A stretch of DNA of 64,000 bases from an uncultured delta proteobacterium (GCA_963706575.1 CAVPNL010000005.1:128001-192000), one strand, 5' to 3'; counted from the stretch's first letter, positions 4,621 to 44,132 are shown. The notes: a model not told the origin generated them from the sequence alone. A program made the numbers and translations.

Positions 4621-4636
4621 AGCAACTGTTGTGCCA
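4621..4636 (-). promoter_or_regulatory. Sigma-54 promoter (-24/-12)
   Basis: TGGCAC-AACAG-TTGCT on minus strand; IHF-like TTTCAGTAAGTTA at 4643-4655. Confidence 0.85.
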
Positions 4637-4690
4637 ATTTTATAACTTACTGAAATTACGTTTAAAAATAATATTTTTAAGCAAAAATGG

Positions 4691-4833
4691 GGAACCGGTT
4701 GTTCCGAAAACAGTTGCGGAGTAAGGCAATGCGGGGGCAACGGGAAAGGATATTATCTAAGCTTTTGGAATAATTGATAATAAAATCGGAATCCTAAATT
4801 CCGATTTTATATCAGGTAGGAATTGAAAGTTCC
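4691..4833. promoter_or_regulatory. Three GGAA-N7-TTCC palindromes (putative activator sites)
   Basis: 4691-4705 GGAACCGGTTGTTCC, 4788-4802 GGAATCCTAAATTCC, 4819-4833 GGAATTGAAAGTTCC. Confidence 0.75.
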
Positions 4834-4839
4834 TGTAAA

Positions 4840-6102
4840 CTAAAGGGTCACACCAAAAAAATTGGCTAGCATAATATTCAGCCATCTGCGGAGTACGGCA
4901 TAGGCGTAATGCCGTGAAGCCACCTCATAATTGGTATTTACCATTTTTGTCCGACGATCCGGTGATTCCAGAACTTCTTTGACGGTTAACACCGTTTTGC
5001 CCGTCAGGTATCCATCCATAACGATTAAATCAAATCCTTTCGGCTCGATATCCTGCACAAACGTAGCATAGCGGTTGATCAGCAGCGGTTTTTTAAAATA
5101 AACGGCCTCTAAAAATGCATTACCGAAACCCTCATATAAACTCGGGTAGGTAATCAAATCGGCGTGCGGATAAACATCCCAGAGCGAACAGGTTTCTTTG
5201 TCGTTCACATCCGGATTCATCGGATCGGACATATGGATGTTGACCAGGCGCAGATCAACACCGCGTTGTCTGGCGTCTTCTTTGAGCCATTCTAAATACT
5301 CCCATCCTTCATCGCCGGCTTCATGGGATATAATCAGTTTATAGCGTGGATCATTTAGTTTTTCGACCAATTCGATGGCATGCTCGATACCCTTGCGCTG
5401 AATGATTCGGGTGGGTTGTAATATCTTAACATCATCCGTTTGCAACCCGATGGATTGCCAGAAGGCGTCGGTGTGCCTTTCGTTGATTTGGGGTGGATTT
5501 TCAAAATCGAGCACGTTGGGGATGATAATGGAGGATATTCCTGTGCGCAGGGCGAGTTCTTCCTGTGCGGCCGAATTGATGACCACATGTTCAATAGTGG
5601 GCAGTTTCGGCGGAAACGCCATTCTGAGATAATCGCCGACGGCATTGACCGCAAAGCGGGTCCTTTCCCAGTAAAAATCATGATGGTGGGCAATGGTGGC
5701 AATCTGAGTCTCTGCAATTATTTCGGTCAGCGCAATACCCAGAGGGATGTGAATTGGAATGGTCAGGATATTTTCAGCTACCAGAAGATCGATCTCAAAT
5801 GTTCGGATAAATTCTTTAAGCTGTTTTTTTAGATGGGTTTTTAAATCGTAAATCGCGTCGGTAACAGCTGAATCGCGTCTATTTTTGCCGAATATCTGCG
5901 AGTTGATCCATTTGTTTTTTTCATGCTGAAAAAATGCTTCGGGAACCAGAAAGCTGCGCTCCGGACTGCGGTCCAGCAACCCTCCGAACCAGAAATAGCG
6001 ATGTCCACATTGCTTGAAAACTGAGGCCCATTTACTGGCTTCTAAGGTAACCCCATCTGTTCCCGCAAAACGGGTTGATACGAATCCGATATTTTTTTGC
6101 AT
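4840..6102 (-). CDS. GT4 family glycosyltransferase (mannosylglucosylglycerate-synthase-like)
   Basis: GFVSTRFAGTDGVTLE N-terminus, HHHDFYWER, PTRIIQRKGIE, YPSLYEGFGNAFLEA GT-B motif. Confidence 0.8.
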   Translation of the reverse strand: MQKNIGFVSTRFAGTDGVTLEASKWASVFKQCGHRYFWFGGLLDRSPERSFLVPEAFFQHEKNKWINSQIFGKNRRDSAVTDAIYDLKTHLKKQLKEFIRTFEIDLLVAENILTIPIHIPLGIALTEIIAETQIATIAHHHDFYWERTRFAVNAVGDYLRMAFPPKLPTIEHVVINSAAQEELALRTGISSIIIPNVLDFENPPQINERHTDAFWQSIGLQTDDVKILQPTRIIQRKGIEHAIELVEKLNDPRYKLIISHEAGDEGWEYLEWLKEDARQRGVDLRLVNIHMSDPMNPDVNDKETCSLWDVYPHADLITYPSLYEGFGNAFLEAVYFKKPLLINRYATFVQDIEPKGFDLIVMDGYLTGKTVLTVKEVLESPDRRTKMVNTNYEVASRHYAYAVLRRWLNIMLANFFGVTL

Positions 6103-6341
6103 CGTTTAAGGTCGACCTCCTTTTTCAATCTGCCGGTTGCGGGCGGGTATTCCTTATTTCCCGTTTACGAATACAATGTATTATCATATAATTAAACTTT
6201 ATGTTGAAAAAATTCGGTTAAGGCCTCGTTTATGTTAATTTTGGAAGGCACCCAAGTCAATACGAAAGGATTCGCGTTTTTATGTTATTTCGTGAAAGCG
6301 ACATTGTAAAAATTAAACGGATGATGACATCCAGGTGGTTG

Positions 6342-7385
6342 ATGAACAAACGATTTGCTTTCATACTATCTGTTTTCCTAGCATTTGGCGCTGTATACGG
6401 TAACGCTGAGGTTGCCGATGATTATTCACGCCTTCTTGAACTTATTCAACTCGATGATCAACAACAGCCGCTGTACGTTTTTAATGATTTTGAGGAAGAA
6501 TTCGATAAGGCCTGTCATCGGGCAACGCGACAGTATTTTAAAGAACATCCCGGTTTGATTCAGCGCATTAAAGCTAAACTTGAAGGCGGAAAGCTGCGGT
6601 GGAAACTCAGAAATCTGAAACATCGGCTGCTGTTTGTACCTGAAAACCGAACCGAATACGCCGCCCTCTACAAAAACTATTGCCTCGATGTCATCGATAC
6701 GATTCTGGACAAAACAGGATTCGATAATCCCTATGACAGCATTCAAACCTTAAGCCGCAGCAAACCTGTACGTCATGAAAAAAATGAGGGCGTCACTGCC
6801 TATATCGTTCATAATCTGGCCAAAGAATATGTCGGCACCTATATTTTTTCGAATCAAACCGATAAAAAAGCAAAAATTGAACTGGAAGGTAAACTCTATA
6901 GCGGTGATGTCGGCGCCTATACGAGCACCTTAATTATGAACGAAAACGGAACCATAGAATTCCTTAAAGACAAATATACCATCTGGCAAAACAGCGCCGC
7001 TAACCCTTACACGGCGTTAATGGTACCAGCTGAAGAGACCTTGCACATTACATTAAGAGGGTTCACCGAGAGCGCCATTGAACAGGCCCTTGAGCAGAGA
7101 CATCACAACAGCTTAAAAATCATGGAAAAAATTGTGGAAGACTGGATGGCTGTTGAAGAGGCGATTGTCGGGGGCATCGTCTATCAGCTGTTGCCGCATA
7201 TCCTGGAAGAACACTTCAAGGATCTGTCGGCGTCCCACATCGAAAAGGATATTTTAGCTAAACGCCAATTTGAAAAATATCGACATCTGGCAAAAGGAAT
7301 CACTGTTGTAGAGGAAATCGGTTATAGGGAAGCCATCCGGATGTATTCAAAAGATCCGGCGGCATTCAGAGACCTTCTGTTATAA
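6342..7385 (+). CDS. Exported hypothetical protein
   Basis: Long ORF; signal-peptide-like MNKRFAFILSVFLAFGAVYGNA after AGGTGG RBS. Confidence 0.7.
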   Translation: MNKRFAFILSVFLAFGAVYGNAEVADDYSRLLELIQLDDQQQPLYVFNDFEEEFDKACHRATRQYFKEHPGLIQRIKAKLEGGKLRWKLRNLKHRLLFVPENRTEYAALYKNYCLDVIDTILDKTGFDNPYDSIQTLSRSKPVRHEKNEGVTAYIVHNLAKEYVGTYIFSNQTDKKAKIELEGKLYSGDVGAYTSTLIMNENGTIEFLKDKYTIWQNSAANPYTALMVPAEETLHITLRGFTESAIEQALEQRHHNSLKIMEKIVEDWMAVEEAIVGGIVYQLLPHILEEHFKDLSASHIEKDILAKRQFEKYRHLAKGITVVEEIGYREAIRMYSKDPAAFRDLLL

Positions 7386-7423
7386 TCGGGTCCGCACGGA
7401 TCCGCCTTCATCGATTAAAATTC

Positions 7424-7786
7424 TTACGCGGCCTTATCTGCGGTTCTTTTAATATCAACCCAACCGCTGTCTTTGTGGAAACAACCCTCAAACAGAATCA
7501 TTTGCGGGAAATTATCTAAGGAGTTAAAGTCCCTAACTGACACATCACTGATGACGGCATCCTTGGGATCGAAAATCCTTATTTCAAATTTGCGTTTTTC
7601 TGTTGTTGGTCGCATGACTCCCTTCAACGACCAAACCCAATCCGGGTCGAGCTTTAACTGCGTAACCAGATACATTCCAATTCGATCCGGCAAATCTTTA
7701 GGTTTCGGCAATTTTGAAGACCTCTGGTTTAAACTCTGGTCATTTTTATTATCAGTTTTCCAGAATTTCCAGTTCATCAGTTTCAT
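7424..7786 (-). CDS. Hypothetical protein
   Basis: 120-aa ORF with AAAGGA RBS; globular-looking PKDLP...DPDWVWSLK...IRIFDP core. Confidence 0.7.
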   Translation of the reverse strand: MKLMNWKFWKTDNKNDQSLNQRSSKLPKPKDLPDRIGMYLVTQLKLDPDWVWSLKGVMRPTTEKRKFEIRIFDPKDAVISDVSVRDFNSLDNFPQMILFEGCFHKDSGWVDIKRTADKAA

Positions 7787-7812
7787 CTCGTTTTTCCTTT
7801 TGATGTCTTGAC

Positions 7813-7843: not shown

Positions 7844-7857
7844 CTTAAGTTAAAATT

Positions 7858-8145
7858 TTATTCTTCAATAACTTTAAAAGACGAGATGGTTATGATCTTT
7901 GTCCCCTCAGACTCCATCACCGTCCCCTTTACGGTAACTTTACTGCCGACCATCTCCATGATCTGATCGCCTTCTTCACTTTCGGCAATATCGTAGGCCA
8001 TACCGTCATTATCGACCAGCTGACCGTCTTCGTTAATGACGCCGGAGATGCTGACTTCCGCACCGGCTATTGCGGTTCCTGAAAGAAAGACGGTTAGACC
8101 GATGATTAAAATTCCTAAAAAGATCTTCTTCATGTTTTTTTCCAT
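7858..8145 (-). CDS. Small exported acidic OB-fold-like protein, paralog of 4234-4521
   Basis: GGAGG RBS; signal peptide ending AIA; VSISGVINEDG...KVTVKGTVME...KIITISSFK. Confidence 0.75.
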   Translation of the reverse strand: MEKNMKKIFLGILIIGLTVFLSGTAIAGAEVSISGVINEDGQLVDNDGMAYDIAESEEGDQIMEMVGSKVTVKGTVMESEGTKIITISSFKVIEE

Positions 8146-8205: not shown

Positions 8206-8442
8206 TTAGACTTGGTTTTTCAGTTTGCTGAATTTTTTGACTTTAATAATCTTTTTCCCTTCTTTGGTTCGCAAGATTCCCTTTATCTTCACCTCCTGTC
8301 TTAAAAATGATTTTAATCTGGCAACCTGGTCTTTATCCCTAATCAGATACTCCTCTTCATCGCGAGCTGCGAGAACCAGGTCAACCACGTTGCCTTTATT
8401 ATCCCATTTGGCAGGAATTATGATGCCTTCTACACAGATCAT
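8206..8442 (-). CDS. Small basic OB-fold-like hypothetical protein, paralog of 3866-4168
   Basis: Start reset to MICVEG because the longer ORF start overlaps the sigma-54 promoter; similarity to 3866-4168. Confidence 0.7.
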   Translation of the reverse strand: MICVEGIIIPAKWDNKGNVVDLVLAARDEEEYLIRDKDQVARLKSFLRQEVKIKGILRTKEGKKIIKVKKFSKLKNQV

Positions 8443-8503: not shown

Positions 8504-8519
8504 AGCAACCACCATGCCA
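8504..8519 (-). promoter_or_regulatory. Sigma-54 promoter (-24/-12)
   Basis: TGGCAT-GGTGG-TTGCT; IHF consensus TATCAAATAGTTA at 8526-8538. Confidence 0.85.
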
Positions 8520-8573
8520 ACTTAATAACTATTTGATATTAAATAATATATTTAATTTGACCGAATTGCGGCC

Positions 8574-8722
8574 GGAACTGCCAGTTCCCAAATTTATAAA
8601 GTGGCAACCACAGATACACATGAAAAGTGGAGAGAGAGAACACAAATGGGTGGTCTGCTAAAGGAAAATACGGACAGGAAATCTGAATTCCGAAATTAAT
8701 CGTTCTCGGAATCACCGGTTCT
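8574..8722. promoter_or_regulatory. Three GGAA-N7-TTCY palindromes (putative activator sites)
   Basis: 8574-8588 GGAACTGCCAGTTCC, 8677-8691 GGAAATCTGAATTCC, 8708-8722 GGAATCACCGGTTCT. Confidence 0.75.
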
Positions 8723-8751: not shown

Positions 8752-10155
8752 TTACAGGGATTTAAATTCTTCTTTTTTGATCCCGTATTTATTCATCAGC
8801 TTGTTGAGCTGGCGGGTGCTGATCCCGGCCGCCTCAGCCGATTCACCAATCTTTCCTTTATGGTGGGCCAAAACATCTTTTAAATAGTTTCTTTCAACCT
8901 CTTCAATCCCGCGCTGCCGCGCCTGGGTCAATGTCAGGTCCTCACTTGATGGGATAAATACGGGGGTGGATTCGGATGCAAAGAGTTCGTTGGGAAAACT
9001 TTCCGGAGTTAGCACGTCTGAAGTTTCCAGTATATAAGCCCGTTCGATTAAATTTTCCAACTCCCGGATATTACCCGGCCAGGAATACCTGCTGAAGGCT
9101 CCCAGCACGTGGGGATGCGTTGAATGTATTTTTTTCAAAGAAAAATTATTCAGTTTTTTTAGAAAGGTCTCGATAAACAACGGGATGTCTTCAACTCGTT
9201 CGCTTAATGCCGGTATTTCGATGGGAAATACATTCAGTCGGTAGTAAAGATCTTTTCTAAATTGTCCCGCGTCGCACATCCTTTGCAGGTCGGCATTGGT
9301 GGCGGTTATTACCCGGACATCCGTTTTAAGGGTTTCTTCACCGCCCACGCGTTGAAAGGTTCCATCCTGCAGAACCTGCAATAATTTGATCTGGGCTGAA
9401 GGCGTAATCGTACCGATCTCATCCAAAAAAATGGTTCCGCCGTGGGCGATTTCAAACTTTCCTAATTTTCTTTTTATGGCTCCGGTGAAAGCGCCCTTTT
9501 CATGTCCGAACATCTCACTTTCAACCAGCGTGTCCGGAATTGCGCCGCAATGGACACAGATGAATTGAGCATCCCGACGGTTACTGTGTTGATGAATCAG
9601 TTTTGCCAGAACACTCTTACCGGTTCCCGTATCTCCCGCAAGCAATACCGTGCTTTTAGTTGGGGCAACGGAGCGGATTTTGTCGAATGTTTTTTTCATT
9701 GCAGCGTTTTTTGTCTGCACAAGCTCAAGCGCATCAACGTCCCAGAATTGATCTCGTAAATAATCAAGCTGCGATTGTATCATTATGGACTCTGCAATGC
9801 TATCAGCGACATGCGTTACTTCCTCTGGATCTGCAGGCAAGGGAAGATAGTCACTCGCACCGGCTTTCACTGCTTTTATGGCTTTGTGAATCTGATTATT
9901 AGGGGCCATAATGATTATTTTAATTGTTGAGTATATTTGCCAGAAAGGCTGCATGGCCTCTTTGTAGTTTTCATCAGGTACTTCTTCAATAAGGATGTCC
10001 AGGTCAATGAATATAAGGTCGTAGCGTCTTTTAGGTAGTAATTCCACTGTCTGGTGTTTGGTAGACGCACGATCCACACGATAACCCGATGGGAAGCAAG
10101 AACGTATGGTATGGAACAATTTTTGTTCGGAGGTGGTAACCAGAATAGATTTCAT
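8752..10155 (-). CDS. Sigma-54-dependent transcriptional activator (NtrC-family bEBP) with atypical receiver domain
   Basis: GDTGTGKS Walker [44 protein letters not shown]-terminal Fis-type HTH. Confidence 0.95.
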
Positions 10156-10183
10156 ATTTTTCCTTGATTCCGAAAACGCTAAA

Positions 10184-10420
10184 TGAGCTAAAATTAAAGA
10201 TGATCTAAAATGTCTAAAATTAAGATTGCGCTCGCGCTGTGCCAGCGCTTACGCGGCGTGTACGCCAGGTGGGCGCTACATCTTTTATTATAAATAGGAA
10301 AGAATTCCTCAACTTTAGGCATTTTAGATCATTTTAGGCATTTTAGGCAATTCTAAATTTAGAGCACCGTGGAAACTTTTTTTCTCTGTCTTCCAAGGTC
10401 AACTGCTAATTTTGAGATAG
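10184..10420. repeat. Dispersed MITE-like repeat with (CTAAAATG)/(CATTTTAG) inverted arms, copy 1
   Basis: Both flanks align with 19266-19462; the centre differs between copies. Confidence 0.75.
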
Positions 10421-10675
10421 CTTTTAATATCTTTTAACGAAATGTCAACAAAATTAGATCATCAATCATTTCGGTCAATTTGATTGGGTGTTTTCAACCC
10501 GGGTGCTTTGCACCCGGATACACCCGCACCGATTAAGGCTCTGGCGTGCCTTTGCTTTTTCCCGCCTATGGCGGAAAAATCCAAGCCACCCGCTCTGCGG
10601 GTGGTCGGTGACCCAAACCTTTTTCAAGTTGGATACAAACTGCAATTTTTTAATAGAGCCTAACCGGATAAGAAG

Positions 10676-10822
10676 TGAATTATCGATTCTCAAGTTTTTA
10701 ATTTCGGAACCGGTACTTCTTAACTTAAATAATTTAGTAATTACAGCTTATTAGCGCTGGCGATGTGGCAATTAATCATATCAAAAAAAGCGATTTGACA
10801 AAAAATCGGAATATCAAGTTCC
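10676..10822. promoter_or_regulatory. Putative activator palindromes upstream of ptsP promoter
   Basis: 10676-10690 TGAATTATCGATTCT (degenerate), 10706-10720 GGAACCGGTACTTCT, 10808-10822 GGAATATCAAGTTCC. Confidence 0.7.
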
Positions 10823-10876
10823 GGTAGAATTTTGCTGTAATTAAGAATACGGTTAAATTTCAACAAGTTACGATTT

Positions 10877-10891
10877 TGGCATATTTGTTGC
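10877..10891 (+). promoter_or_regulatory. Sigma-54 promoter (-24/-12)
   Basis: TGGCAT-ATTTG-TTGC; IHF-like TTTCAACAAGTTA at 10858-10870. Confidence 0.85.
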
Positions 10892-13512: not shown

Positions 13513-14631
13513 ATGCACGATCAAAATAACGCGGTTGAAGATCGATCAGGAGGCGAAAGCAAGCATTACAATTTGATGGACGGAGCCACCGGCGAAGGCC
13601 TGAAGGTGATCAGGGAACTTGACGAGCAGCGCAAAATTTCAGCCGATTCCGACATGCCAATGGATGAGCGTCTGGAGGCCTATGAAGACATATTTGATTC
13701 TGAAGTTGGCGATACCTCGCTTGTGCGCGCCCGCAATATTGAAAGAGAAGTGGGTCTGCGCCAAATTTTCCTTAAATTCGAAGGCGGCAACCCGACCGGT
13801 ACGCAAAAGGATCGGATTGCGTTTGCCCAGGCCATGGATGCCCTGCGGCGGGGTTTTGATGCCATCACGATGGCGACATGTGGAAATTACGGCGTCGCAA
13901 TGGCGCTGGCCGCCTCCTTCGCCGGGCTGCAATGCCGGATTTGCATTCCCGAAAACTACCATACCAACCGGATAAAAGAAATGACCGAGCTCGGAGCAGA
14001 AATTGTTCGGGTTGCCGGGGATTATGAAAAAGCGGTAGCTGTTTCCCAGGAGTTGGCCCAGAAAAACGAGCTTTACGATGCCAACCCGGGTGGAGATAAT
14101 ACCGTTACCCAGTTGCGTGCTTATGGGCAAATTGCCCATGAGATTTACGATGAACTGCGGGACGCACCTCTGGCACTTGCAGTCCCGGTCTCAAACGGCA
14201 CCACGCTTTCCGGGATTTACAGGGGTTTCTTGAGCCTGTATCGGCGCGGCAAAACCTCTCGCATGCCGCGCATCATCGCCGGGTCTTCATTCCGTAAAAA
14301 CCCGATTGTGCAGGCATTTTTAAAGAATATGCGGACCTGTGAAGACCTTAATCCCGCGCAAATCAGGGAAACCAGCGTAAATGAACCGTTGATTAACTGG
14401 CATGCCATTGATGGAGATGTTGCCCTGGATGCGATCCGCCAAACCCATGGTTGGGCGGCCAATGCCTCGGATAAAGCGATGCTCTCCTATTCGAAATTAA
14501 TTCGTGAGAAAGAAGGTTTGCAGGTTTTGCCGGCCTCGACCGCCGGCTTGATCGCTTTGATGGAACAGCATCAAAAAGAGCCACTCGCAGGTGATCGTTA
14601 TGTCGTTATGTTAACAGGGAGGAAATCATGA
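13513..14631 (+). CDS. PLP-dependent enzyme, fold type II (threonine synthase-like)
   Basis: KFEGGNPTGTQKDR PLP-lysine motif, ATCGNYG, PVSNGTT. Confidence 0.85.
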   Translation: MHDQNNAVEDRSGGESKHYNLMDGATGEGLKVIRELDEQRKISADSDMPMDERLEAYEDIFDSEVGDTSLVRARNIEREVGLRQIFLKFEGGNPTGTQKDRIAFAQAMDALRRGFDAITMATCGNYGVAMALAASFAGLQCRICIPENYHTNRIKEMTELGAEIVRVAGDYEKAVAVSQELAQKNELYDANPGGDNTVTQLRAYGQIAHEIYDELRDAPLALAVPVSNGTTLSGIYRGFLSLYRRGKTSRMPRIIAGSSFRKNPIVQAFLKNMRTCEDLNPAQIRETSVNEPLINWHAIDGDVALDAIRQTHGWAANASDKAMLSYSKLIREKEGLQVLPASTAGLIALMEQHQKEPLAGDRYVVMLTGRKS

Positions 14632-15703
14632 ACCAACTGCCGGAGGGAAATGCCATCGTATATTGTGAGGGGGCCTTCAACACGCCTAACGGTAAAACGG
14701 CTCATGGTTTGGTCAGGTTCACGAACCGATATCGTCTACTTTCGGTTGTCGATTCGCGCTATGACGGCCGGGATGCCGGTGCTGTATTGGACGGTAAAGC
14801 AAACCGAATTCCGATTTTTGGTTCCCTCGAACAGGCCGTAAAGGAGGCCGACAGTCATACGCATCCGGCCACACACTTCGTTGTCGGCCTGGCCCCGGAC
14901 GGCGGCCGCCTGACTTCAAAAGCGCGGCAGGATGCCAAAAATGCCGTCTCATTTGGCTTGAACGTGGATTGCGGTCTGCACGATTATCTCTCGGAAGATC
15001 GCGGAAATGAAGAAGCTTGCTGCTCAATATGATGTTAAAATTCGAGATATTCGAAAACCGCCGCGAATCCAAAAACTTCATTTTTTCAGCGGTAAAATCG
15101 AGGAGGTCAAGGCCCTGAAGATCGCTGTGCTGGGAACCGATTCGGCGATCGGTAAACGCACAACGGCCTGGTTGATCGTCAACGGCTTCAAGGAACTGGG
15201 GCTGGAGCGCGGAGATGATCGGCACCGGTCAGACCGCCTGGATGCAGGGAGTCAAATACGGGATTATCATGGACTCTCTGGTGAACGATTTTGTTGCCGG
15301 TGAAATTGAGCATGCGGTGTGGAGCGCCTGGAAAGAAGAAAAACCGGATATCATCGTCATTGAGGGGCAGGGCAGTTTAATGAATCCGGCTTATCCCGGC
15401 GGCTTTGAAATCCTGGCTGCCGGTCGGCCCGATATCATTATACTTCAACACGCGCCCGCACGGCTTGAATATGACGGGTTTCCCGGCTATGCGATCCAGC
15501 CCCTGACCCAGCAAATTCAGGTGATCGAAATGCTATCTGGAAAGCCGGTGGTGGCGGTTACCATCAACCACGAGGGCCTGTCCTTTGATCAAATTCCGTC
15601 GATTTGCGATGCGATCCAAAAAGAAGTCGGTCTGCCGGCTTTTGATGTTCTCAAGGATGGGGCCGGTGCTATTATAAAAATTTTAGAATCGTATCTTAAT
15701 TAA
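14628..15703 (+). pseudogene. DUF1611 / DgcN-like protein split by two +1 frameshifts (probably sequencing errors)
   Basis: GKTAHGLVRF, GLHDYL, GTDSAIGKRTT, GTGQTAWMQG, IEGQGSL in three successive frames; extra bases near 15000 and 15205. Confidence 0.85.
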
Positions 15704-20344: not shown

Positions 20345-20392
20345 AAATTCCATATGCGGGGCAGGAGTTCATTCAACCATAATGGATTGATC

Positions 20393-20923
20393 ATGAAAAG
20401 TTTAAGCTGGATAATAAAAGTTATTTTTTTAGTTTTATTATTTTTAAGCGATGCGCCGGTTTTCTCGGAAGTCGCCCCTTCAAATAAAGACCTGCTGGTG
20501 GCCGGCTGGGTGGAGAATGTCAGCCTTTTCCCGGGCAATTTGAAGATCAAAGCCAAGCTTGACACCGGCGCCAAGAATTCATCTTTAAATGCAAAGTATA
20601 TCGAGGACTTTGAGCGCGACGGGGAGAAATGGGTGCGCTTCAAGTTGAAAAATTGGAAAGGACGGACGGAGAAATTTGAAGCCAGGGTAATTCGCACGGC
20701 CACAATCAAACAGCACGAGACCGAATCGGTAACGCGCCCCGTCATTCGCCTTGGAATCTGCCTGGGGAATATTTATAAAGAGGTTGAAGTCAATCTGCAG
20801 GATCGCAGCAAATTTAATTACCAGCTGCTTATCGGGCGCAGTTATCTCCAAAATTCAATTTTAGTAGACTCCTCTGCGACGCTTACCGTTCAACCTGACT
20901 GCCAGGGAGCAATTCATAAATGA
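20393..20923 (+). CDS. RimK-associated retropepsin-like peptidase (so-called ATP-dependent zinc protease family), exported
   Basis: Signal-like N-terminus; GWVE, AKLDTGA, RPVI, DRSKFNYQLLIGR. Confidence 0.85.
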   Translation: MKSLSWIIKVIFLVLLFLSDAPVFSEVAPSNKDLLVAGWVENVSLFPGNLKIKAKLDTGAKNSSLNAKYIEDFERDGEKWVRFKLKNWKGRTEKFEARVIRTATIKQHETESVTRPVIRLGICLGNIYKEVEVNLQDRSKFNYQLLIGRSYLQNSILVDSSATLTVQPDCQGAIHK

Positions 20924-22455
20924 CCAGACGGCATCTAATCTTCCTGACGCTGACATTAACACTTATCGGGTCAATTGTCTTTTTGTACAAGGCGCTGGTA
21001 TTGAATTTTCCGCTGGTACCTGAAGTTCGATCCGATATCTGGGCGGTTGAGGCCCACCTGACCTTTGTCTCCGACAATAAACCCATCAAGGTTTCAATGA
21101 ACCTTCCTCGCAATTCCCGCCGATTTGCGATCGTGAATGAGAATTTTATTTCCCGCGGGTATGGCGTCAACGTCGTAACCGAAGATGGGAAACGCAAGGT
21201 TCATTGGTCGATTCGCAAGGCCAGGGGAGCTCAAAATCTCTATTACCGTGCTTCGGTGCGCCGGATGGATAGAGACATCCCCCCAAAAACGCCGCAAGGA
21301 CCCGGCCCTGAAAAACCCGATCTCAAAGGCGCTTATCGTGAGGCCTCCGAGGCCCTTGTCTCGGAAGCGCGCGAAAAATCCGCCGATATAGACGGCATCA
21401 TCATCGAGTTGTTGCATCGCCTTAACACCCCGCGGCCGGGGGATAATGCCGCGCTGCTGCTGGGCAAAAAGGCCTCGGTCCAGAAGAAAGTGGATCTATC
21501 CGTTCAATTACTGGCACTAGCCGGTATTCACGCCCGCAGCGTGCATGGTATAGGACTGGAAGATCAAAAGCGCAATTCACCAATTATCCACTGGTTGGAA
21601 ATTTACGATAAAAAGCAGTGGGTATCCTATGATCCGGTTACCGGAAAGCAGGGAGTGCCCGAGGGTTACCTGATCTGGTGGCGGGGCATGGAGCCGCTGT
21701 TTGAGTCCCAGGGAACGAAAAACCTTGCCGCAACCGTTTCGGTGTCTCGCAGCGAGGAGCCGGCCGTACAGGCGGTCTTAGAAACCGGTGAGCTTAAAAA
21801 ACCATTTTTACTGGGCTTTTCGCTGTTCAGTCTTCCAATTGAGACCCAGGCCGTATATCACGTGATTTTAATGGTGCCGGTCGGTGTTTTTCTGCTGGTT
21901 ATCCTGCGCAATGTCATTGGTATCCGGACCTTCGGCACTTTTATGCCGGTGCTCATTGCCCTGGCATTTCGAGAAACCCAACTTTTATGGGGTGTCATTT
22001 TATTTTCCAGCTTAATTGCTTTAGGCCTTGTCATTCGGCTATATCTGGCTCACCTGAAGTTGCTGGTGGTGCCTCGACTGGCTGCCATTTTAATTGTCGT
22101 GATTTACCTGATGGCCCTGTTCAGCATTTTGACGCACAAATTCGGTTTGGAACGCGGACTTTCCGTCGCGCTTTTCCCCATGGTGATTATGACCATGACC
22201 ATTGAACGAATGTCCATTGGCTGGGAAGAGCTGGGGGCCTTGGAAACCCTGAAGCAAGGTGCATGGTCGATGGTTGCAGCGATGCTGGCTTATTTAGTGA
22301 TGACCATCAAGCACATTGAACACTTGTTGTTTGTTTTTCCGGAGCTATTGCTTATTCTGCTGGCCGGAACCTTATGGCTGGGGCGCTACACCGGGTTCAG
22401 GTTACTGGAGCTGCCGCGTTTTAAATCACTGACAAAGATAAGACCTGATGTTTAG
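20920..22455 (+). CDS. Inactive transglutaminase fused to 7TM domain
   Basis: ENFISRGYG, WSIR, LRNVIGIRTFGTFMPVLIALAF, FPMVIMTMTIER, GRYTGFRLLEL. Confidence 0.88.
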   Translation: MTRRHLIFLTLTLTLIGSIVFLYKALVLNFPLVPEVRSDIWAVEAHLTFVSDNKPIKVSMNLPRNSRRFAIVNENFISRGYGVNVVTEDGKRKVHWSIRKARGAQNLYYRASVRRMDRDIPPKTPQGPGPEKPDLKGAYREASEALVSEAREKSADIDGIIIELLHRLNTPRPGDNAALLLGKKASVQKKVDLSVQLLALAGIHARSVHGIGLEDQKRNSPIIHWLEIYDKKQWVSYDPVTGKQGVPEGYLIWWRGMEPLFESQGTKNLAATVSVSRSEEPAVQAVLETGELKKPFLLGFSLFSLPIETQAVYHVILMVPVGVFLLVILRNVIGIRTFGTFMPVLIALAFRETQLLWGVILFSSLIALGLVIRLYLAHLKLLVVPRLAAILIVVIYLMALFSILTHKFGLERGLSVALFPMVIMTMTIERMSIGWEELGALETLKQGAWSMVAAMLAYLVMTIKHIEHLLFVFPELLLILLAGTLWLGRYTGFRLLELPRFKSLTKIRPDV

Positions 22456-23389
22456 CCTAAAAAAGCAACTCACTGGGATCGGTGTGCTGGGGATCAACCG
22501 GCGAAACGCCGAGTACACCTTTAAATACAACTCGCGCGATCGCTATCCGCTGGTGGATGACAAGTTGCAAACCAAGAAACTTGCCACCGAGGCGGACATC
22601 GCCGTACCGGAACTCTATGGTGTTATTGAAACCGAATACCAGGTTCGTCACTTCGCTGAGATGATTAAACCCTATGCTGAGTTCGCAGTCAAACCATCCA
22701 GAGGCTCGGGCGGAAAAGGGATTCTGGTTATCGTCGGGCGCTCAAAGGATATGTACCGTACTGTCGATGGCTCGCTGCTGACCCGAGAAGAAGTCGGTTA
22801 TCAACTGTCTAATGTCATCAGTGGCATGTATAGCCTGGGGGGACAGCCGGATAAAGCGTTAATTGAATATCGGGTGAAGTTTGATCCGGTGTTTGAAACT
22901 ATCAGTTATCAGGGTGTACCCGATATTCGAGTCATTGTTTTTCTTGGAGTGCCGGTCATGTCCATGGTCCGATTACCCACGCGTATGTCCGGTGGCAAAG
23001 CCAACCTGCATCAAGGAGCCATTGGCGCCGGAATCGATATTGCTACCGGTACAACCCTTACGGCGGTCTGGCGCAATTCGATTATCAGCGAGCATCCGGA
23101 TACCGGCAATCCGGTCACCGGTGTAAAAATTCCCAATTGGGAAAAATTGTTAAAAATTGCCGCTCAGTGTAATGCACTTGCCGGACTGGGATATATCGGC
23201 GTTGATCTGGTTTTAGATAAAGAAAAGGGGCCTTTAATCCTGGAAATGAACGCACGCCCGGGTCTTAACATCCAGATTGCCAACCGAGCCGGCTTGTTGC
23301 CGCGCTTGCGCCTTGTTGAACAGCATCAGCAAGATTTGTCCAATATCGAAGACCGCATCGCTTTTTCCAGACAGCACTTTAGGGCATAA
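22448..23389 (+). CDS. Alpha-L-glutamate ligase-like ATP-grasp protein (RimK-like)
   Basis: GINRRN, VDDKLQTK, KPSRGSGGKGI, GVPDIR, ANLHQGA, EMNARPGL. Confidence 0.9.
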   Translation: MFSLKKQLTGIGVLGINRRNAEYTFKYNSRDRYPLVDDKLQTKKLATEADIAVPELYGVIETEYQVRHFAEMIKPYAEFAVKPSRGSGGKGILVIVGRSKDMYRTVDGSLLTREEVGYQLSNVISGMYSLGGQPDKALIEYRVKFDPVFETISYQGVPDIRVIVFLGVPVMSMVRLPTRMSGGKANLHQGAIGAGIDIATGTTLTAVWRNSIISEHPDTGNPVTGVKIPNWEKLLKIAAQCNALAGLGYIGVDLVLDKEKGPLILEMNARPGLNIQIANRAGLLPRLRLVEQHQQDLSNIEDRIAFSRQHFRA

Positions 23390-29212: not shown

Positions 29213-29460
29213 AACAAACTTTGGAATTGTCTATTATTTAAATTTGCAATGATAAAATTAGAATAAATGTGCAGCCGATAATTCGATTGTCCGGATAAGA
29301 AGTTAAGATTCCGTTAAAAGAAATATAGGAACTGCCAATCCTTGTTTTTTTTTGTTTAGATTTCAATCAATTAGGTAAATAATCGTACACGCCGCGATCG
29401 TTTCTCACCTAAATTTATTACCGCAACCAGTCACGCCAGTTCACAGGCATCACCGGTTTT

Positions 29461-31332
29461 TCACGAGATCGTTACCTGTGAGCGCAGGAGCCTCAACAGA
29501 TACCGTTGCGCCAGCAGATCGGAGCTGATCACACCCAGGACGGTTCCGTTTTCCACAACCGGCATCGCTGAAATTTGGTTTTGTTCCAGATCGGTTACAA
29601 TATCCAGAATACTGTCGCCAGGGTTTGCCGAAATCACCTTGCGGGTCATAATCTTTTCTACGCTGTCTTCGCCAACGCCCCCGGCAGTGGCGCGGGTGAT
29701 GTCCCAGGTGGTGACGACGCCTGCAAGCTTGCCATCCTGTGAAAGCACGGCGATAATATGGCTCTGGGATTCGACGATCAGTGCAGCGGCTTCCTGCATT
29801 TCCGCTTGGACGTTGACAGTGGGTATCGATTCCATGATGTCTTTGGCCGTGCGTTCTTTTTCTTTTTCGGTGAGACGATGGAGGCTGATGCGTTCTGCGG
29901 CCTGGCAGGGCAGCAACTCCGAATCGGAGGCCAGCAAGTCGACCAGCTCTGTCATGTTGCGTCGAATCGACTTTTCTCTAAACGCCATACCGGCTTCCAG
30001 GCGCCTGGCGGAAATCTCGTTCAATTCGGCAGCATTTTTAGAAAGCCAGTTTTCGACTGACTTGCGTTTGCCGAGTATTTTGGGGGGAATCTGAAGGTGC
30101 GCAGGCGTTGGGATAATGTGTTCCTGGGCAGCAAAAATGACTCCGCCTGAGTTGACCAAATAGTCGTTGGCAATCATCACGCCTTTTTGACGGTAGACTT
30201 CTTGCTCCATGCGGGTGCGCGCTGCCTTGCGGTTGGGATCCGGCGAGTAGGTGTTGGCGCCCTCAATAATCAGTGACCATTTTCCCATGCGGTCCACACT
30301 CATCGAGCAGGCCTCTGTCGGAAGCACCCCCAGGTAATTAAACATGGGGGCTGCCGGTATAAAACAGAAGGCCGACTCTCGCAGCAGGTTGTTGGCATCC
30401 GTCGAAAATTTAGTGGAATGACGATGCCCCTGCGATGCAATCTCATTCTCATAGTATTGACGGGAAACCAAACCCTGCTGCTTTGCCAAAATCAAAAGCT
30501 TGTCGATTGATAAACCGGTCCTGTCGTAAAGGTACCCCTGGAGATCATTGACTCCGATGACGTTTGCCGCTGGAAATTTTTCGAGCAGCAGCCGGGCGGC
30601 ATGTGCGCCGACCGCCCCGAAGCCCTGGATAATAACGCTAAGCTCCTCAGGGGAAGGCATTTCTAATTGGCCGAACTGAGGCAGGACCGTAAGACGCGGC
30701 ATTATTTCCAGCAGTCTCTCAAGGGCAATGATCAAACCACCGGCGGCGGCCCCTAACTCGTCGATGCGGTTGCCGCCCATATCGGCGGGCTTGGATACGG
30801 CACTGTCGATACCATTTTCTATGGAAATGGTTTTCATGTCGGCGTCATTGGTGCCGACATCCGGACCGGGCACATAGATGTCCCGGTAACGCCGAAGCAG
30901 GCGTGCAAATCTCCTGACCAGCTCGGTGCGTTCCTGCGGTGGCATGTCAGGCTCGGCCACAATGCCTGATTTACCACCGCCGTAAGGCAGGCCGGCCGCC
31001 GCGTTTTTAAGCGTCATGCCGCGGGCCAGATTGTGAACCCCAGCCGGGGTGATGTCGGGAAGCATGCGGATTCCTCCCATGGACGGGCTTCCCATGGCCA
31101 GATTATCCACCACCAAAAAGCCCCCGACTTCCAGGGAGGAGGCCTCATCCCACATACAGGCAACCAGTCTGGGGCCAAGGCGGTCGCAATTGATCCCGAT
31201 GCGGGAAAGAAGATATTCGTCAATATAGCCCAGCTCCAGAAAACACCTCCCATTTTCCCGCTGGGTGCGGTTTTCAATGGCGGTTTCCGGGATATGCGCC
31301 ATCAGGTATGCTTCCAAATTTTTGGGGATCAT
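29461..31332 (-). CDS. Glu/Leu/Phe/Val dehydrogenase family protein with C-terminal CBS pair
   Basis: GGIR, MTLK, GGGK, PGPDVGT, GFGAVG, EGAN, NSGGV; C-terminal AKDIM...LAGVVTTWDI...IMTRKVI...MPVV CBS repeats. Confidence 0.85.
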   Translation of the reverse strand: MIPKNLEAYLMAHIPETAIENRTQRENGRCFLELGYIDEYLLSRIGINCDRLGPRLVACMWDEASSLEVGGFLVVDNLAMGSPSMGGIRMLPDITPAGVHNLARGMTLKNAAAGLPYGGGKSGIVAEPDMPPQERTELVRRFARLLRRYRDIYVPGPDVGTNDADMKTISIENGIDSAVSKPADMGGNRIDELGAAAGGLIIALERLLEIMPRLTVLPQFGQLEMPSPEELSVIIQGFGAVGAHAARLLLEKFPAANVIGVNDLQGYLYDRTGLSIDKLLILAKQQGLVSRQYYENEIASQGHRHSTKFSTDANNLLRESAFCFIPAAPMFNYLGVLPTEACSMSVDRMGKWSLIIEGANTYSPDPNRKAARTRMEQEVYRQKGVMIANDYLVNSGGVIFAAQEHIIPTPAHLQIPPKILGKRKSVENWLSKNAAELNEISARRLEAGMAFREKSIRRNMTELVDLLASDSELLPCQAAERISLHRLTEKEKERTAKDIMESIPTVNVQAEMQEAAALIVESQSHIIAVLSQDGKLAGVVTTWDITRATAGGVGEDSVEKIMTRKVISANPGDSILDIVTDLEQNQISAMPVVENGTVLGVISSDLLAQRYLLRLLRSQVTIS

Positions 31333-31491: not shown

Positions 31492-31507
31492 AGCAACAGA
31501 CGTGCCA
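31492..31507 (-). promoter_or_regulatory. Sigma-54 promoter (-24/-12)
   Basis: TGGCAC-GTCTG-TTGCT upstream of the dehydrogenase-CBS gene. Confidence 0.85.
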
Positions 31508-31514: not shown

Positions 31515-31714
31515 AATATGAACCCATCTCAAAAATAGGATTTTGATTCAAGATTGCGGCGGGGCCGAGCTTTCCAGCGTTGCTGGACTTCCCGCCTGAT
31601 TAAATCCTCTTTGTGGGTCGTAAACCGGAGGCATACTGTTGTATGTTGAGGGTTTAAAGCCAGGCTCCAACAAAGATATTGGGCCAAAAGACATTTTTGA
31701 GACGGGTTCATATT
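31515..31714. mobile_element. MITE-like non-autonomous element (about 200 bp)
   Basis: Terminal inverted repeats AATATGAACCCATCTCAAAAAT / ATTTTTGAGACGGGTTCATATT (21/22); no transposase. Confidence 0.75.
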
Positions 31715-31850: not shown

Positions 31851-31896
31851 AGAAGAAGAAGTTCCTTTTTCATACTAAATCGGAACTCGCGGTTCT
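31851..31896. promoter_or_regulatory. Paired putative activator palindromes, 31 bp apart
   Basis: 31851-31865 AGAAGAAGAAGTTCC and 31882-31896 GGAACTCGCGGTTCT. Confidence 0.6.
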
Positions 31897-37893: not shown

Positions 37894-37909
37894 AGCAAAG
37901 CATGTGCCA
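37894..37909 (-). promoter_or_regulatory. Sigma-54 promoter (-24/-12)
   Basis: TGGCAC-ATGCT-TTGCT upstream of usp-usp-DUF47-pit; palindrome AGAACTGGGAGTTCT at 38126-38140. Confidence 0.85.
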
Positions 37910-38170
37910 ATTTAAGGACGATCCAGGGGTGAATTTTATGATGCAGAAGAATTCAAATCGGCGGACAGCATATTTAGGATAAATATCCAAGAGTTTGCGC
38001 ATTAGATAAAATTGTTTGTTTCTGCGACGCGATAATTTTTTTTGCAGACTGCTAATGCTGGCTTAAATAGGCGCTGATAGACGTTTGAAAACGAGATAAA
38101 TTGGTTCTGCTTTCATATTTCAATCAGAACTGGGAGTTCTATATTCGCATCCAGCAGAAACTTGTCTATT

Positions 38171-40667: not shown

Positions 40668-40701
40668 CGAATACGCAAGAGATTGCATCCAAAGAAAGGG
40701 A

Positions 40702-41279: not shown

Positions 41280-41344
41280 TTCGTCTCACCATAGTTGAAT
41301 GAAACCATTACGTGCTTCATGAGCGCCGTTATGAATGAAATGGA

Positions 41345-42589
41345 TCAGGCGCTTTTTGCGGTTGGTTGATAAGCCACGATAGGTTTTCCCTGACCCACAA
41401 CCACATCCGCAGTGATGATGCATTCGTGAACATATTTCATGGACGGCAGTTCGTACATGATATCCAGCAGGCAAGCTTCCAGAATCGTGCGCAAACCTCT
41501 GGCCCCTGACTTGCGCTGGGTGGCTCCGGTGGCAATCGTCTCGAGTGCGTCTTCCGTAAATCTTAAGTTTACTCCCTCCATTTCAAAAAGCTTCTGAAAT
41601 TGTCGGATCAAGGCGTTTCTGGGTTCTTTCAATACCCGAATCAAGGCCTCTGCGTTTAAATCGTGCAGCGGTGCGATCACCGGCAGGCGACCCAAAAACT
41701 CCGGAATAAAACCGTATTTCAACAGGTCTTCCGGCTGGACTTCCTTGAGAATGTCACCGATACTACCTGCTTTGTCGTGCGCGATTCTGGCGCCATACCC
41801 CATAACTTTTGAGCCCATGCGGCTTTGAATAATTTTCTCCAGTCCGGTAAACGTGCCGCCGCAAATAAACAGGATGTTGCGGGTGTCAATCTTTATGAAG
41901 TCCTGCTGAGGATGTTTGCGGCCGCCTCTGGGCGGCACACTGGCGACGGTGCCTTCGAGGATCTTCAAAAGCGCCTGCTGGACCCCTTCACCCGATACAT
42001 CCCTACTGTCTGAGGAAGCGCCTGTCTTCCTGGCGATCTTGTCGATTTCGTCTATGTAGACAATTCCCTGATGGGCTCTGTCGATATTGTAGTCAGCGTT
42101 TTGCAGCAAATACAGGATGATGTTTTCGACATCCTCGCCGACATAGCCGGCTTGCGTTAACGGGGTTGCATCGGCGATCGTAAAGGGCACATCTAGAAAC
42201 CGGGCCAGGGTTTGGGCCAGCAAGGTCTTGCCGCTGCCGGTCGGCCCGATTAAAAGTACATTGCTTTTTTGGATTTCGACGTCCGCGCCGTGAATACCGC
42301 TGTCAAGACGCTTGTAATGGTTAAAAACAGCTACCGATAGGATCTTTTTAGCCGTTTCCTGCTCAATCGCGTATTCATCCAGTTTTTCTTTGATTTCTTT
42401 TGGCGTCAGCCTGTGCGGTAATTTTTTTGTACCCCCTTTTTTTTCTTCTTCTAAAAGTTTATTGCACAGGCGGACGCATTCGTCACAGATATGCACCGCC
42501 GGCCCGGCAATTAATTTTTTTACTACGGATTGTTCCTTGCCGCAAAATGAGCAAAACAGGCTGTTACCGTAATTATTGTCCTCTAACAT
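41345..42589 (-). CDS. clpX: ATP-dependent Clp protease ATP-binding subunit ClpX
   Basis: CSFCGK...CDEC zinc finger, [47 protein letters not shown]. Confidence 0.95.
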
Positions 42590-42654
42590 TACATCCAGCC
42601 TTCTACTTCTCTAGTCCAATTTGTGTTTTCGCCATAAATACGTTTTATTGTTGC

Positions 42655-43647
42655 CTAAAATAAGGACCCGCTATGCGAGCCAGGCCAATTGACAGATGGA
42701 TTCAATACGGATCTTTTTCGACCCACCGTAAATTTATGGGTCCACGTCAATAGTTTTCTGCGAAATGGATGAGCGAGTAATCTCTTAATATTTTCGATTT
42801 GGGACTCCGCAGCTTTTTCTCCCTGCAAGATGACCTCTTCATAGTTCATAAAATTGGCCCAATCCACCTGCCTGACAGCTGGTTCTATCAGAAGGTCGGC
42901 GGATTCTCGCCCCCGACGACTCAAATGGTAACCCATGATTTCCGTGGCACGGGTTATCGCATCAATACCGTCTCTGATGGAAGTGGATTGCTTAATGCTC
43001 AATCCGACATCCACCGCGACAATAACGTCTGCTCCAATGTCTCCTATCAGATCCGCCGGCAGGGGATTAGCAACACCACCGTCCACCAGTAACCTTCCGT
43101 TCCAGGGCATGGGTGGCATAAAACCGGGTACCGCGCAACTTGCCATTACTGCCGCAATCAGCTGTCCCTGGTTCAGGACAATTTGTTCACCTGTATAGAG
43201 ATCGACTGCCAACGCGTTAAACGCAATGGCTGTTTGCTCGATGTTGATATCCGCTACAAAGGCTTCAACGGCATCTCTCATATCTTTCTTAGAAAACAAG
43301 GCATTTCTAAACATGGCCAGGCTGACAAAAACTTCTTTCTGTGCAAAGCGATAAATCCGATCGAACCAGTCGGCTTTTGTGCCGTCGTCCCATTGCATTC
43401 TGCAGAGCAATTTGAGATTCTTTGCATTATTACCATCTGATCCAAGAACTTCCAGGAGCTTTTGTTTCAATGCCTCGGCATCGGGGTTTGTGGCATAGGC
43501 GGCTCCCACCAAAGCCCCGATACTTGAGCCTACGATCATATCAATGGGGATATCGTTACGCTCGAGCACTTTTAAAACACCAATGTGGGCCAGTCCCCTT
43601 GCGCCGCCGCCGCCCAGGGTCAATCCCAGTTTGATGCGTTTACGCAT
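42655..43647 (-). CDS. Patatin-like phospholipase
   Basis: GGGGARG, GSSIG, DGG motifs; start reset to MRKRIK. Confidence 0.92.
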   Translation of the reverse strand: MRKRIKLGLTLGGGGARGLAHIGVLKVLERNDIPIDMIVGSSIGALVGAAYATNPDAEALKQKLLEVLGSDGNNAKNLKLLCRMQWDDGTKADWFDRIYRFAQKEVFVSLAMFRNALFSKKDMRDAVEAFVADINIEQTAIAFNALAVDLYTGEQIVLNQGQLIAAVMASCAVPGFMPPMPWNGRLLVDGGVANPLPADLIGDIGADVIVAVDVGLSIKQSTSIRDGIDAITRATEIMGYHLSRRGRESADLLIEPAVRQVDWANFMNYEEVILQGEKAAESQIENIKRLLAHPFRRKLLTWTHKFTVGRKRSVLNPSVNWPGSHSGSLF

Positions 43648-43712
43648 TGGCTTGAATATCTCCAAAAAATGGTGAGAAAAAACGGGGAAGGGTTGAATTT
43701 TGAAAGAACGCT

Positions 43713-43735
43713 AATCCTATTTTTGAGATGGATTC
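43713..43735. repeat. Isolated MITE terminal repeat of the 31515-31714 family
   Basis: Reverse complement GAATCCATCTCAAAAATAGGATT matches 31520-31542 at 22/23. Confidence 0.65.
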
Positions 43736-43850
43736 TAGTCGTTTTCCCGCGTTCCACATACGATACTTCTTTTTTCTTTGCCCCGCCAAAAAAAATGTTC
43801 GCCCACGGATCCCGGGAGTTAAATTCGGGTGCACCATGCTCTATATGCAC

Positions 43851-43866
43851 AGCAATCCATATGCCA
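43851..43866 (-). promoter_or_regulatory. Sigma-54 promoter (-24/-12)
   Basis: TGGCAT-ATGGA-TTGCT; IHF-like TTTCAGCAGGTTA at 43873-43885. Confidence 0.85.
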
Positions 43867-43920
43867 AATATTTAACCTGCTGAAATCAATATGATTAATT
43901 TTTTTTATGAATCGCGGATC

Positions 43921-43966
43921 GGAACTTGCAGTTCGGGTATCGAAAAAAATCGGAATCGGGAATTCC
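43921..43966. promoter_or_regulatory. Paired putative activator palindromes between divergent sigma-54 promoters
   Basis: 43921-43935 GGAACTTGCAGTTCG and 43952-43966 GGAATCGGGAATTCC, 31 bp apart. Confidence 0.75.
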
Positions 43967-44117
43967 CCTCCGGCGAGGGTTTTGACTTCACAGCCTTCCT
44001 TAGGAACATTTTCCTTAAAAAGATTTTATTTGGCAGTAGCTATTTTCTCATAAGATTCAGGTACTTTTAAGGCGCATCCATTCCTTTGCGTCATGTATTT
44101 ATGCCCTGTGATAAAAT

Positions 44118-44132
44118 TGGCATATCAATTGC
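44118..44132 (+). promoter_or_regulatory. Sigma-54 promoter (-24/-12)
   Basis: TGGCAT-ATCAA-TTGC about 50 bp before 44183. Confidence 0.85.

Follow-up and report, generated by a model that had tools for sequence, protein, structure and literature searches.

Among the questions raised by a 64,000-nt stretch of DNA from an uncultured delta proteobacterium (CAVPNL010000005.1:128001-192000; this whole stretch is hereafter the window, and its own coordinates are used throughout), a central one is what governs its seven sigma-54 promoters and the palindromes that accompany them. An original prediction made on this DNA had proposed a single activator for all seven, with the bacterial enhancer-binding protein (bEBP) encoded at 8752-10155 as the candidate. 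Comparative genomics supports this proposal, as a prediction from sequence: with a probability of roughly 0.78, the seven promoters (P1 to P7, Table 1) would form the regulon of this protein, the predicted binder of the palindromes. The protein is the orthologue of DVU0619 from Desulfovibrio (Nitratidesulfovibrio) vulgaris Hildenborough, for which a much smaller regulon has already been put forward.

A cluster of sigma-54 promoters with kept spacings

Seven matches to TGGCAY-N5-TTGC occur in the window, against a mean of 0.49 and a maximum of 2 in shuffled sequences, and they recover all seven promoters of the original prediction. Genome-wide there are 67 such strict promoters; the densest 40-kb stretch is this cluster with its 7, and 40-kb stretches away from it hold at most 4. 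The genome contains rpoN.

The palindromes keep the distances that had been proposed for them. The four proximal sites all lie 54 nt before the TGGC, which is the 55-bp offset described earlier, and the pairs 30-31 bp apart, said to lie 152-158 bp from four promoters, are found at gaps of 151/182, 157/188, 156/186 and 151/182 nt. Every site had been written as GGAA-N7-TTCC, and here the positions are right but the letters deviate in 4 of the 11 sites listed (one mismatch each at 43921, 8708 and 10706, two at 10676), so that the consensus is better given as RGAAY-N5-RTTCY. Some sites had been overlooked, namely the pair 31851/31882, the site 38126 with its weak partner 38094, and an orphan pair at 29298/29328. 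A site-like match at 7762, inside coding sequence and in promoterless surroundings, was set aside.

Exact GGAA-N7-TTCC occurs 7 times in the window (mean 2.4 and maximum 6 in shuffles). The original prediction had named a motif equally common elsewhere as grounds for abandoning it; taken bare, the eight-letter motif is indeed near background, with a weak genome-wide enrichment (152 copies at N7; the spacings N3-N6 and N8-N12 give 95-145), but its placement at promoters is distinctive, since an exact copy within 260 nt of a strict promoter is found at 5 of the 67, all five in the window. The signal is carried by the position of the motif and not by its bare frequency.

A scan of the genome and of relatives, which had been suggested as a check, was made with a matrix of 22 sites taken only from orthologue loci of other genomes. 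Of the 776 sigma-54 candidates of this genome, P2, P1, P3, P7 and P6 took the first five places (scores 55, 53, 43, 34 and 16, with the sixth candidate at 12.6), and the pattern recurs in relatives. All six site pairs of the genome at 29-33 bp with a summed score of at least 20 lie inside the window, whereas five control spacings gave 1, 2, 1, 1 and 0 pairs genome-wide; within this genome the arrangement is confined to the cluster. An unbiased histogram of gaps peaks at 51-55, 152-159 and 184-190 nt, and 208 control promoters had zero sites at less than 250 nt.

Conservation beside the activator

The layout is conserved beside orthologues of the activator. Eight of 80 related loci carry close orthologues (49-85%), and five of these have the layout; the remaining 72 loci, with 120 promoters, have no site at a gap of 52-56. 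Of 301 order genomes, 46 contain the strict site-gap-promoter pattern, against 2 for the reversed control. The orthologue is encoded by 122 of the 301 and by 38 of 251 phylum genomes sampled. Both occur in 42 order genomes, the orthologue only in 80, the pattern only in 4 and neither in 175, that is, the strict pattern is found in 42/122 orthologue-positive versus 4/179 orthologue-negative genomes. With the relaxed matrix, a pair or a proximal site was detected at 24 of 29 loci from the order and at 18 of 28 from the phylum, against 1 of 72 control loci of other bEBPs. A family-level draw around the genome G301, with a looser pattern, gave 28 of 121 genomes versus 7 for the control.

The activator, an orthologue of DVU0619

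The activator has an AAA+ sigma-54 interaction domain (PF00158, E 7e-68) with the GAFTGA motif, and a C-terminal Fis-type helix-turn-helix (HTH; PF02954, 28.8 bits for a cut-off of 22) through which its dimers would bind the sites; the HTH residues R448, Q449, L450 and L453 are invariant in 28/28 orthologues. It is the orthologue of DVU0619: both are reciprocal best matches at 48-49% identity (E 4e-138 versus 1e-86 for the next match in one direction, 6e-139 versus 1e-88 in the other), and a FastTree phylogeny of 46 sequences and 414 columns, from which bEBPs shorter than 300 aa were excluded, puts the activator and the DVU0619-type protein in one clade of 14/14 with support 1.0. NrfR (DVU0621) was rejected as the orthologue, having 30% identity, a separate branch and different published sites (a GTCA-N8-TGAM-type motif).

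The N-terminal receiver has lost residues. We take an acidic pocket after beta-1, a Thr/Ser after beta-4 and a Lys before the beta-5 Pro to mark a phosphorylatable receiver. In the 28 orthologues compared, the phosphoacceptor D51 is kept in 24, the acidic pair is replaced by T/S-S-E, the position of A84 holds T or S in 13, and none of the 28 has the Lys at 106 that would precede the beta-5 Pro. The window search found no cognate kinase beside the activator gene, the nearest kinase being at 47720. Control of the activator is likely to be independent of normal phosphorylation, and what it responds to would probably be a ligand, an interacting protein or the amount of activator itself.

A lone copy of the motif stands about 30 nt before the activator start codon in three relatives (L118:1471, L132:1470, L137:1474), with only a half-site in the window, which suggests a possible autoregulation in some relatives. 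Two structured repeats that occur genome-wide separate the activator gene from the ptsP enhancer (10180-10435 and 10480-10610); they have no Rfam match and may affect expression of the activator. A riboswitch or other non-coding RNA upstream of the gene was considered and dropped, as Rfam was negative in the window and in 20 orthologue loci (one chance match, E 0.77), and a read pile-up there is a genome-wide repeat. The 22 RNA runs listed consisted of contigs sharing at most 0.21 of the words, and the four that were aligned yielded short pieces from relatives, which carry no information on start, strand or level.

Relation to the published DVU0619 regulon and to other systems

The original prediction had not recognised the motif or the regulon as described, but the palindrome and the three-site layout were already in print. 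Kazakov 2015 (PMC4641369) predicted nine DVU0619 sites in three genomes, with a proximal site and a pair 29-31 apart, and assigned the RGAA-N7-TTCY motif to DVU0619 by co-localisation; the regulon given there is one two-gene operon whose function was left unassigned. The published sites score 13-16 with our independent matrix. Locus L191 reproduces the promoter and all three DVU0617 sites in print letter for letter (gaps 53/179/208); its ORFs (open reading frames) match the published DVU0616/0617 proteins, and the adjoining bEBP is the reciprocal best match of the window activator. The small protein at 8206-8442 aligns with DVU0617 (21% identity, pairwise E 9e-9); for the second target and DVU0616 (pairwise E 0.48) the likeness is one of position, leader and residue pattern only.

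In the supplementary table of DNA-binding domains of PMC4641369, the labels of DVU0619, DVU0621 and DVU0653 seem to be one row off the gene order. The gene order of L191, together with NrfR sites beside the next bEBP and kinase, indicates that the HTH of DVU0619 stands under the DVU0621 label by such a shift. DVU0619 itself resisted purification, hence the absence of a binding test in that study (PMC3333781, supplement).

Both systems share the orthologous activator, the RGAA-N7-TTCY motif, a proximal gap (53 there), a pair 29-31 apart and, next to the activator, a small barrel-protein target of the DVU0617 type (PMC4641369). They differ in extent, one two-gene operon in D. vulgaris Hildenborough versus seven promoters here, and in the distance of the distal pair beyond the proximal site, 126 nt there versus 97-103 here. 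The IHF box, the pair-only class and the degenerate receiver described here are unmentioned for DVU0619 in the passages of that article examined, and its main text has the word IHF zero times. In the literature searched, with subscription journals and RegPrecise outside the search, DVU0616-0619 came up in the main text of PMC4641369 only, and a seven-promoter regulon, two promoter classes, IHF and proximal sites that move together, or the degenerate receiver were not found. The regulon would likely be much larger here than the one-operon prediction in print.

Other activators offer partial likenesses. NtrC at glnAp2 binds 17-bp palindromes in tandem, spaced by some three turns, and acts at a distance, as proposed here, but it is phosphorylated by NtrB and has another motif and other genes. 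NorR at E. coli norVW also has three dimer sites, possibly for one hexamer, but these are consecutive, all required and read by a protein with a GAF sensor (PMC2831303), whereas here the sites are arranged 1+2 with a 100-nt gap and the N-terminus has a receiver fold; non-consecutive triads stand at 3 of the 7 window promoters, and pair-only promoters also exist. OrpR and the orp operons of D. vulgaris, from the same phylum, share a bEBP gene between outward sigma-54 promoters and IHF, but have a PAS/Fe-S sensor and only two operons (PMC8359166). FlbD/DVU1063 likewise has a receiver without active-site residues and may not need phosphorylation, but has flagellar targets, a 13-bp motif and another HTH string (PMC3333781). 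With classical parts and a motif already in print, this is no new kind of system; its interest is that a two-gene prediction of unassigned function in a tractable sulfate reducer becomes a testable hypothesis of a kinase-less sigma-54 activator that drives a multi-stress programme.

Two promoter classes

At P1, P2, P3 and P6 an IHF-like 13-mer stands 6 nt before the TGGC, matching 7-9 of the 9 scored positions of WATCAANNNNTTR, which we take to be the IHF consensus. The boxes claimed for these four promoters are therefore all present; an IHF architecture of the entire regulon is not, as P4, P5 and P7 are pair-only and have no box. The same division was found in 59 larger loci, where promoters were selected by a proximal window of 50-58 and a pair window of 28-33. 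Among the 96 promoters with a proximal site or a pair, the proximal gap has its mode at 54 (27/67) and the pair spacing at 30-31, and among the 93 of good score an IHF-like box accompanies 48 of 64 in the proximal class versus 6 of 29 in the pair-only class; in a slightly narrower search window, 2 of 60 other promoters of the genome have one. The gap to the IHF box grows with that to the proximal site (rho 0.76), and the two differ by 48 in 24 of 48. The sites of the pair-only class often stand between two divergent promoters and would serve both, as do 43921/43952 in the window and those of L240, L241, L264 and L266.

These features would fit a model where one 17-bp palindrome (RGAAY-N5-RTTCY), kept at set distances, is the docking site of the activator. 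With TGGC numbered as -26, the distal pair (31 bp or three turns apart, centres near -185 and -216) would be the basic enhancer, sufficient alone and able to act over a long distance and in both directions, as at P4, P5 and P7. P1-P3 would be the strongest class: there a further site centred at -88, combined with bending by IHF at -45 to -33, would bring in a third dimer, and the resulting hexamer would be turned onto the sigma-54 polymerase; at P6 the pair itself would occupy the proximal slot. Promoter, IHF box and third site stand at nearly fixed distances from one another, a tighter arrangement than one would usually expect at sigma-54 enhancers, and the natural variants (pair-only, bidirectional, transposon-displaced) could serve to study hexamer assembly. 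Two further ideas were abandoned: a whole-turn quantisation of the proximal-to-distal gap, which values of 88-104 and then 124-126 nt do not support, and a single wrap of the DNA round the hexamer, not claimed for the triad span of 128-134 because its sites are unevenly spaced. The wrap described for a hexamer is about 130 bp (PMC2831303).

The same activator could also use the proximal site at -88 as a brake or tuning element, whose occupancy next to the IHF bend would block the loop from the distal pair, as feedback at high activator levels. The proximal site is dispensable at some promoters, since the pair-only ones (29 in the survey; P4, P5 and P7 in the window) do without it; it moves with the IHF box and not with the promoter, and the lone site before the activator gene in three relatives fits autorepression. 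However, some promoters have a proximal site alone above threshold (such as L187, L189 and L173), the pair stands at 54/85 in P6, L124 and L125, and activation from a site near -90 with an IHF box in front of it is nothing unusual (one quoted case is at -101), all of which leaves the brake as a possible but unlikely reading.

Table 1. Positions of promoters, binding sites and associated genes in the window.
Feature	Position	Strand	Remarks
Second cytoplasmic small OB-fold-like protein	3866..4168	-	
Second likely exported small OB-fold-like protein	4234..4521	-	
P1 sigma-54 promoter, triad class	4622..4636	-	small barrel proteins, dksA, zinc-ribbon, HU-like, K+ channel
P1 IHF-like box	4643..4655	-	7/9 consensus positions
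P1 proximal site	4691..4705	.	gap 54 nt to TGGC
P1 distal pair (4788, 4819)	4788..4833	.	gaps 151/182
Small beta-barrel protein, N-terminal hydrophobic leader, likely exported	7858..8145	-	
Cytoplasmic small beta-barrel protein, DVU0617 homologue	8206..8442	-	
P2 sigma-54 promoter, triad class	8505..8519	-	cytoplasmic and exported small barrel proteins; DVU0617-promoter counterpart
P2 IHF-like box	8526..8538	-	9/9 consensus positions
P2 proximal site	8574..8588	.	gap 54; 15-bp core same as published DVU0619-family site
P2 distal pair (8677, 8708)	8677..8722	.	gaps 157/188; directly behind activator stop codon
Sigma-54 activator (bEBP), 467 aa	8752..10155	-	degenerate receiver, AAA+ with GAFTGA, Fis HTH
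P3 distal pair (10676 weak, 10706)	10676..10720	.	gaps 186/156
P3 proximal site	10808..10822	.	gap 54
P3 IHF-like box	10858..10870	+	8/9 consensus positions
P3 sigma-54 promoter, triad class	10877..10891	+	ptsP, thrC-like, dgcN-like, creatininase-domain protein, epimerase
Orphan site pair (29298, 29328)	29298..29342	.	between convergent glgP and gdh-CBS
P4 sigma-54 promoter, pair-only	31493..31507	-	GDH-CBS
MITE-like repeat, 190 bp, terminal inverted repeats	31520..31709	.	inserted between P4 and its pair
P4 site pair (31851, 31882)	31851..31896	.	gaps 343/374
P5 sigma-54 promoter, pair-only, weak	37895..37909	-	usp genes
P5 sites	38094..38140	.	38126 score 13.3, gap 216; 38094 score 2.9, gap 184
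P6 sigma-54 promoter	43852..43866	-	patatin, clpX, usp
P6 IHF-like box	43873..43885	-	7/9 consensus positions
Pair common to P6 and P7, bidirectional (43921, 43952)	43921..43966	.	gaps 54/85 to P6, 182/151 to P7
P7 sigma-54 promoter, pair-only	44118..44132	+	144-aa protein, DUF47, PiT, MgtE, two-component genes, diadenylate cyclase

The extent of the regulon and the identity of the binder

A second alternative, just as doubtful, is a smaller regulon where only P1-P3, P6 and P7 respond, and P4 and P5 are decaying or under another activator. The pair of P4 is 343/374 nt off, with a miniature inverted-repeat transposable element (MITE)-like repeat 12 nt from the promoter; P4 and P5 both have no IHF box, the inner P5 site is weak, and the orphan pair 29298/29328 shows that relic sites can persist. 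Both promoters and their best sites are still near consensus, however, and subtracting the 190-nt repeat and a 2-nt duplication from the P4 gaps restores 151/182, the spacing of P1 and P7. The repeat belongs to a family of 22 full-length copies in the genome, including this one, 14 of them flanked by TA/TA and 3 by AT/AT. An upstream promoter with a pair precedes relatives of GDH-CBS in 3 of 4 activator-positive versus 0 of 14 activator-negative genomes, some of these loci being incomplete and the promoters lying 700-800 nt upstream. For P5, gaps of 183/215, 184/216 and 173/205 occur in 3 of 5 relatives at 77-90% identity; the 183-184/215-216 spacing recurs in G094 and G010, and the spacing is kept in G224 too. 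Two usp loci (L316, L317) have no promoter above threshold, and a pair was found in 0 of 12 distant usp loci. No promoter was found for the orphan pair; at L242 the pair in the equivalent position behind gdh-CBS belongs to a promoter further downstream, so that the orphan pair is likely a relic left over from a rearrangement.

It is quite improbable that another protein, such as a bEBP encoded elsewhere or in unassembled sequence, binds the palindrome and that the local activator merely travels with the cluster. This would be consistent with the incomplete genome, with the four pattern-positive genomes that have no activator orthologue, and with the supplement of PMC4641369, which puts this HTH string under DVU0621 (NrfR), a protein of different motif. 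On the other side stand the near-exclusive co-occurrence and the adjacency of activator and pattern across the phylum, and the label conflict is explained by the one-row shift, as the bEBP beside the DVU0617 sites of L191 carries the string. That the sites are chance hits, or that a single promoter cassette was duplicated and passively copied, can practically be dismissed despite the commonness of the bare motif, given the conservation across the phylum, the probability of about 5e-6 per position (1/200000) of a score of at least 14, and the intergenic regions at 4520, 8440, 29200 and 37690, whose BLAST matches are to themselves only and which thus reflect kept site positions and not duplicated cassettes. 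The spacers of the window are mutually dissimilar, and in eight aligned P2 regions the sites form invariant blocks.

Several observations weigh against a seven-promoter regulon of the 8752-10155 activator, or against parts of its proposed architecture. The strict pattern is missing from 80 of the 122 orthologue-positive genomes, and neither a pair nor a proximal site was found in 5 of 29 order loci, which are best matches and no random draw among phylogenetically non-independent relatives, or in 10 of 28 phylum loci. The triad is absent from the orthologue loci L004, L006 and L007, and L117/L120 duplicate the training loci L003/L004. At a completeness of 91.8%, the genome encodes 30-odd further bEBPs; its IHF genes, three with a best match to alpha and two to beta, all fall under curated cut-offs. 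The proximal-to-distal gap is scattered over 88-104 nt and not over whole helical turns, and the inner P5 site at 38094 scores just 2.9. The operons behind the promoters are predicted from strand only, and patatin-clpX is a putative member, assigned from the window alone. Finally, DVU0617 goes down in acid and peroxide, the latter a treatment where DVU0616 goes up (PMC2685097, supplement).

Predicted target genes and a possible role in stress

The predicted targets in the window comprise DksA, an HU-like protein, a K+ channel, PtsP, ThrC-like and DgcN-like proteins and an epimerase, and further GDH-CBS, Usp, patatin, ClpX, PiT, MgtE and a diadenylate cyclase. In relatives, the first genes behind such promoters, 14 targets chosen by eye, include Hsp20, GroES/EL, DksA, Usp and lysine 2,3-aminomutase-like and arginine decarboxylase-like proteins, and across 32 neighbourhoods the target set is reshuffled. 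Joint activation of stress, osmotic and ion-balance genes is the likely role of the regulon.

The four small proteins behind P1 and P2 have predicted OB-fold-like folds (predicted local distance difference test, pLDDT, 79-83). A structure search with these folds returned only OB-fold neighbours, none at E <=0.001, and an atlas search returned hypothetical clusters, with DUF5818 at 0.90. Such proteins are found nowhere else in the genome; of 57 orthologue loci, 39 and 24 have them, against 0 of the 72 control loci. In the array data of the PMC2685097 supplement, DVU0616 is up in cold, stationary phase, chromate and peroxide and DVU0617 in heat and stationary phase, and both are classed as multiple-stress genes of low average expression. 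We lean slightly towards a stationary-phase or multi-stress programme as the output of the regulon. RpoS scored above cut-off in 0 of 5 genomes tested, and it is a speculative extension that the DVU0619 family provides a sigma-54-based general stress or stationary response of Desulfobacterota in the role of RpoS, which would be kinase-free, tuned by the induced OB-fold pairs and graded by pair-only versus rigid IHF-plus-third-site geometry. In one relative (G255:C13:431064-431765) an additional gene of the sigma-70 family is located some 16 kb away from the gene of the activator orthologue.

Other features of the cluster

The cluster had been called an island, a term that it does not deserve: it is merely a gene cluster, with a genome-like G+C content of 0.43-0.52 per 4 kb, no tRNA in the window and no integrase among the 53 ORFs scanned. 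The 144-aa protein behind P7 (44183-44617), which gave faint eRF1-domain-2-like scores only, often stands behind a sigma-54 promoter in relatives; a pair at 151-154/182-184 precedes its gene in 3 of 29 other loci, and in G028 it lies behind hsp20, with promoter gaps of 150/180. A block of DgcN-like, thrC-like, 799-aa creatininase-domain and DgcA-like epimerase genes recurs behind these promoters in relatives; in the window, the DgcN-like (DUF1611) gene at 14628-15703 is split over two ORFs, probably by a frameshift or an assembly error. The protein encoded at 29461-31332, a Glu/Leu/Phe/Val dehydrogenase fused to C-terminal CBS domains, is found in 19 of 301 order genomes.

Two groups of genes have no sigma-54 site of their own and score mostly below cut-offs, a RloA/RloB/RimK-like trio at 20354-23389 and a mannosylglucosylglycerate-synthase-like glycosyltransferase at 4840-6102; together they are suggestive of osmotic stress. 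The region 47720-61895 encodes a kinase plus a fusion of a receiver with a DASS transporter, two diadenylate cyclases, and numerous transporters for Mg, Ca and phosphate (MgtE, CNNM, CorA, Na/Ca antiporter). A fragment of the 190-bp MITE-like family lies at 43713-43740, and in another genome (G119, L218:5492-6559) a sulfur oxygenase/reductase-like gene, below cut-off, stands behind a full triad promoter.

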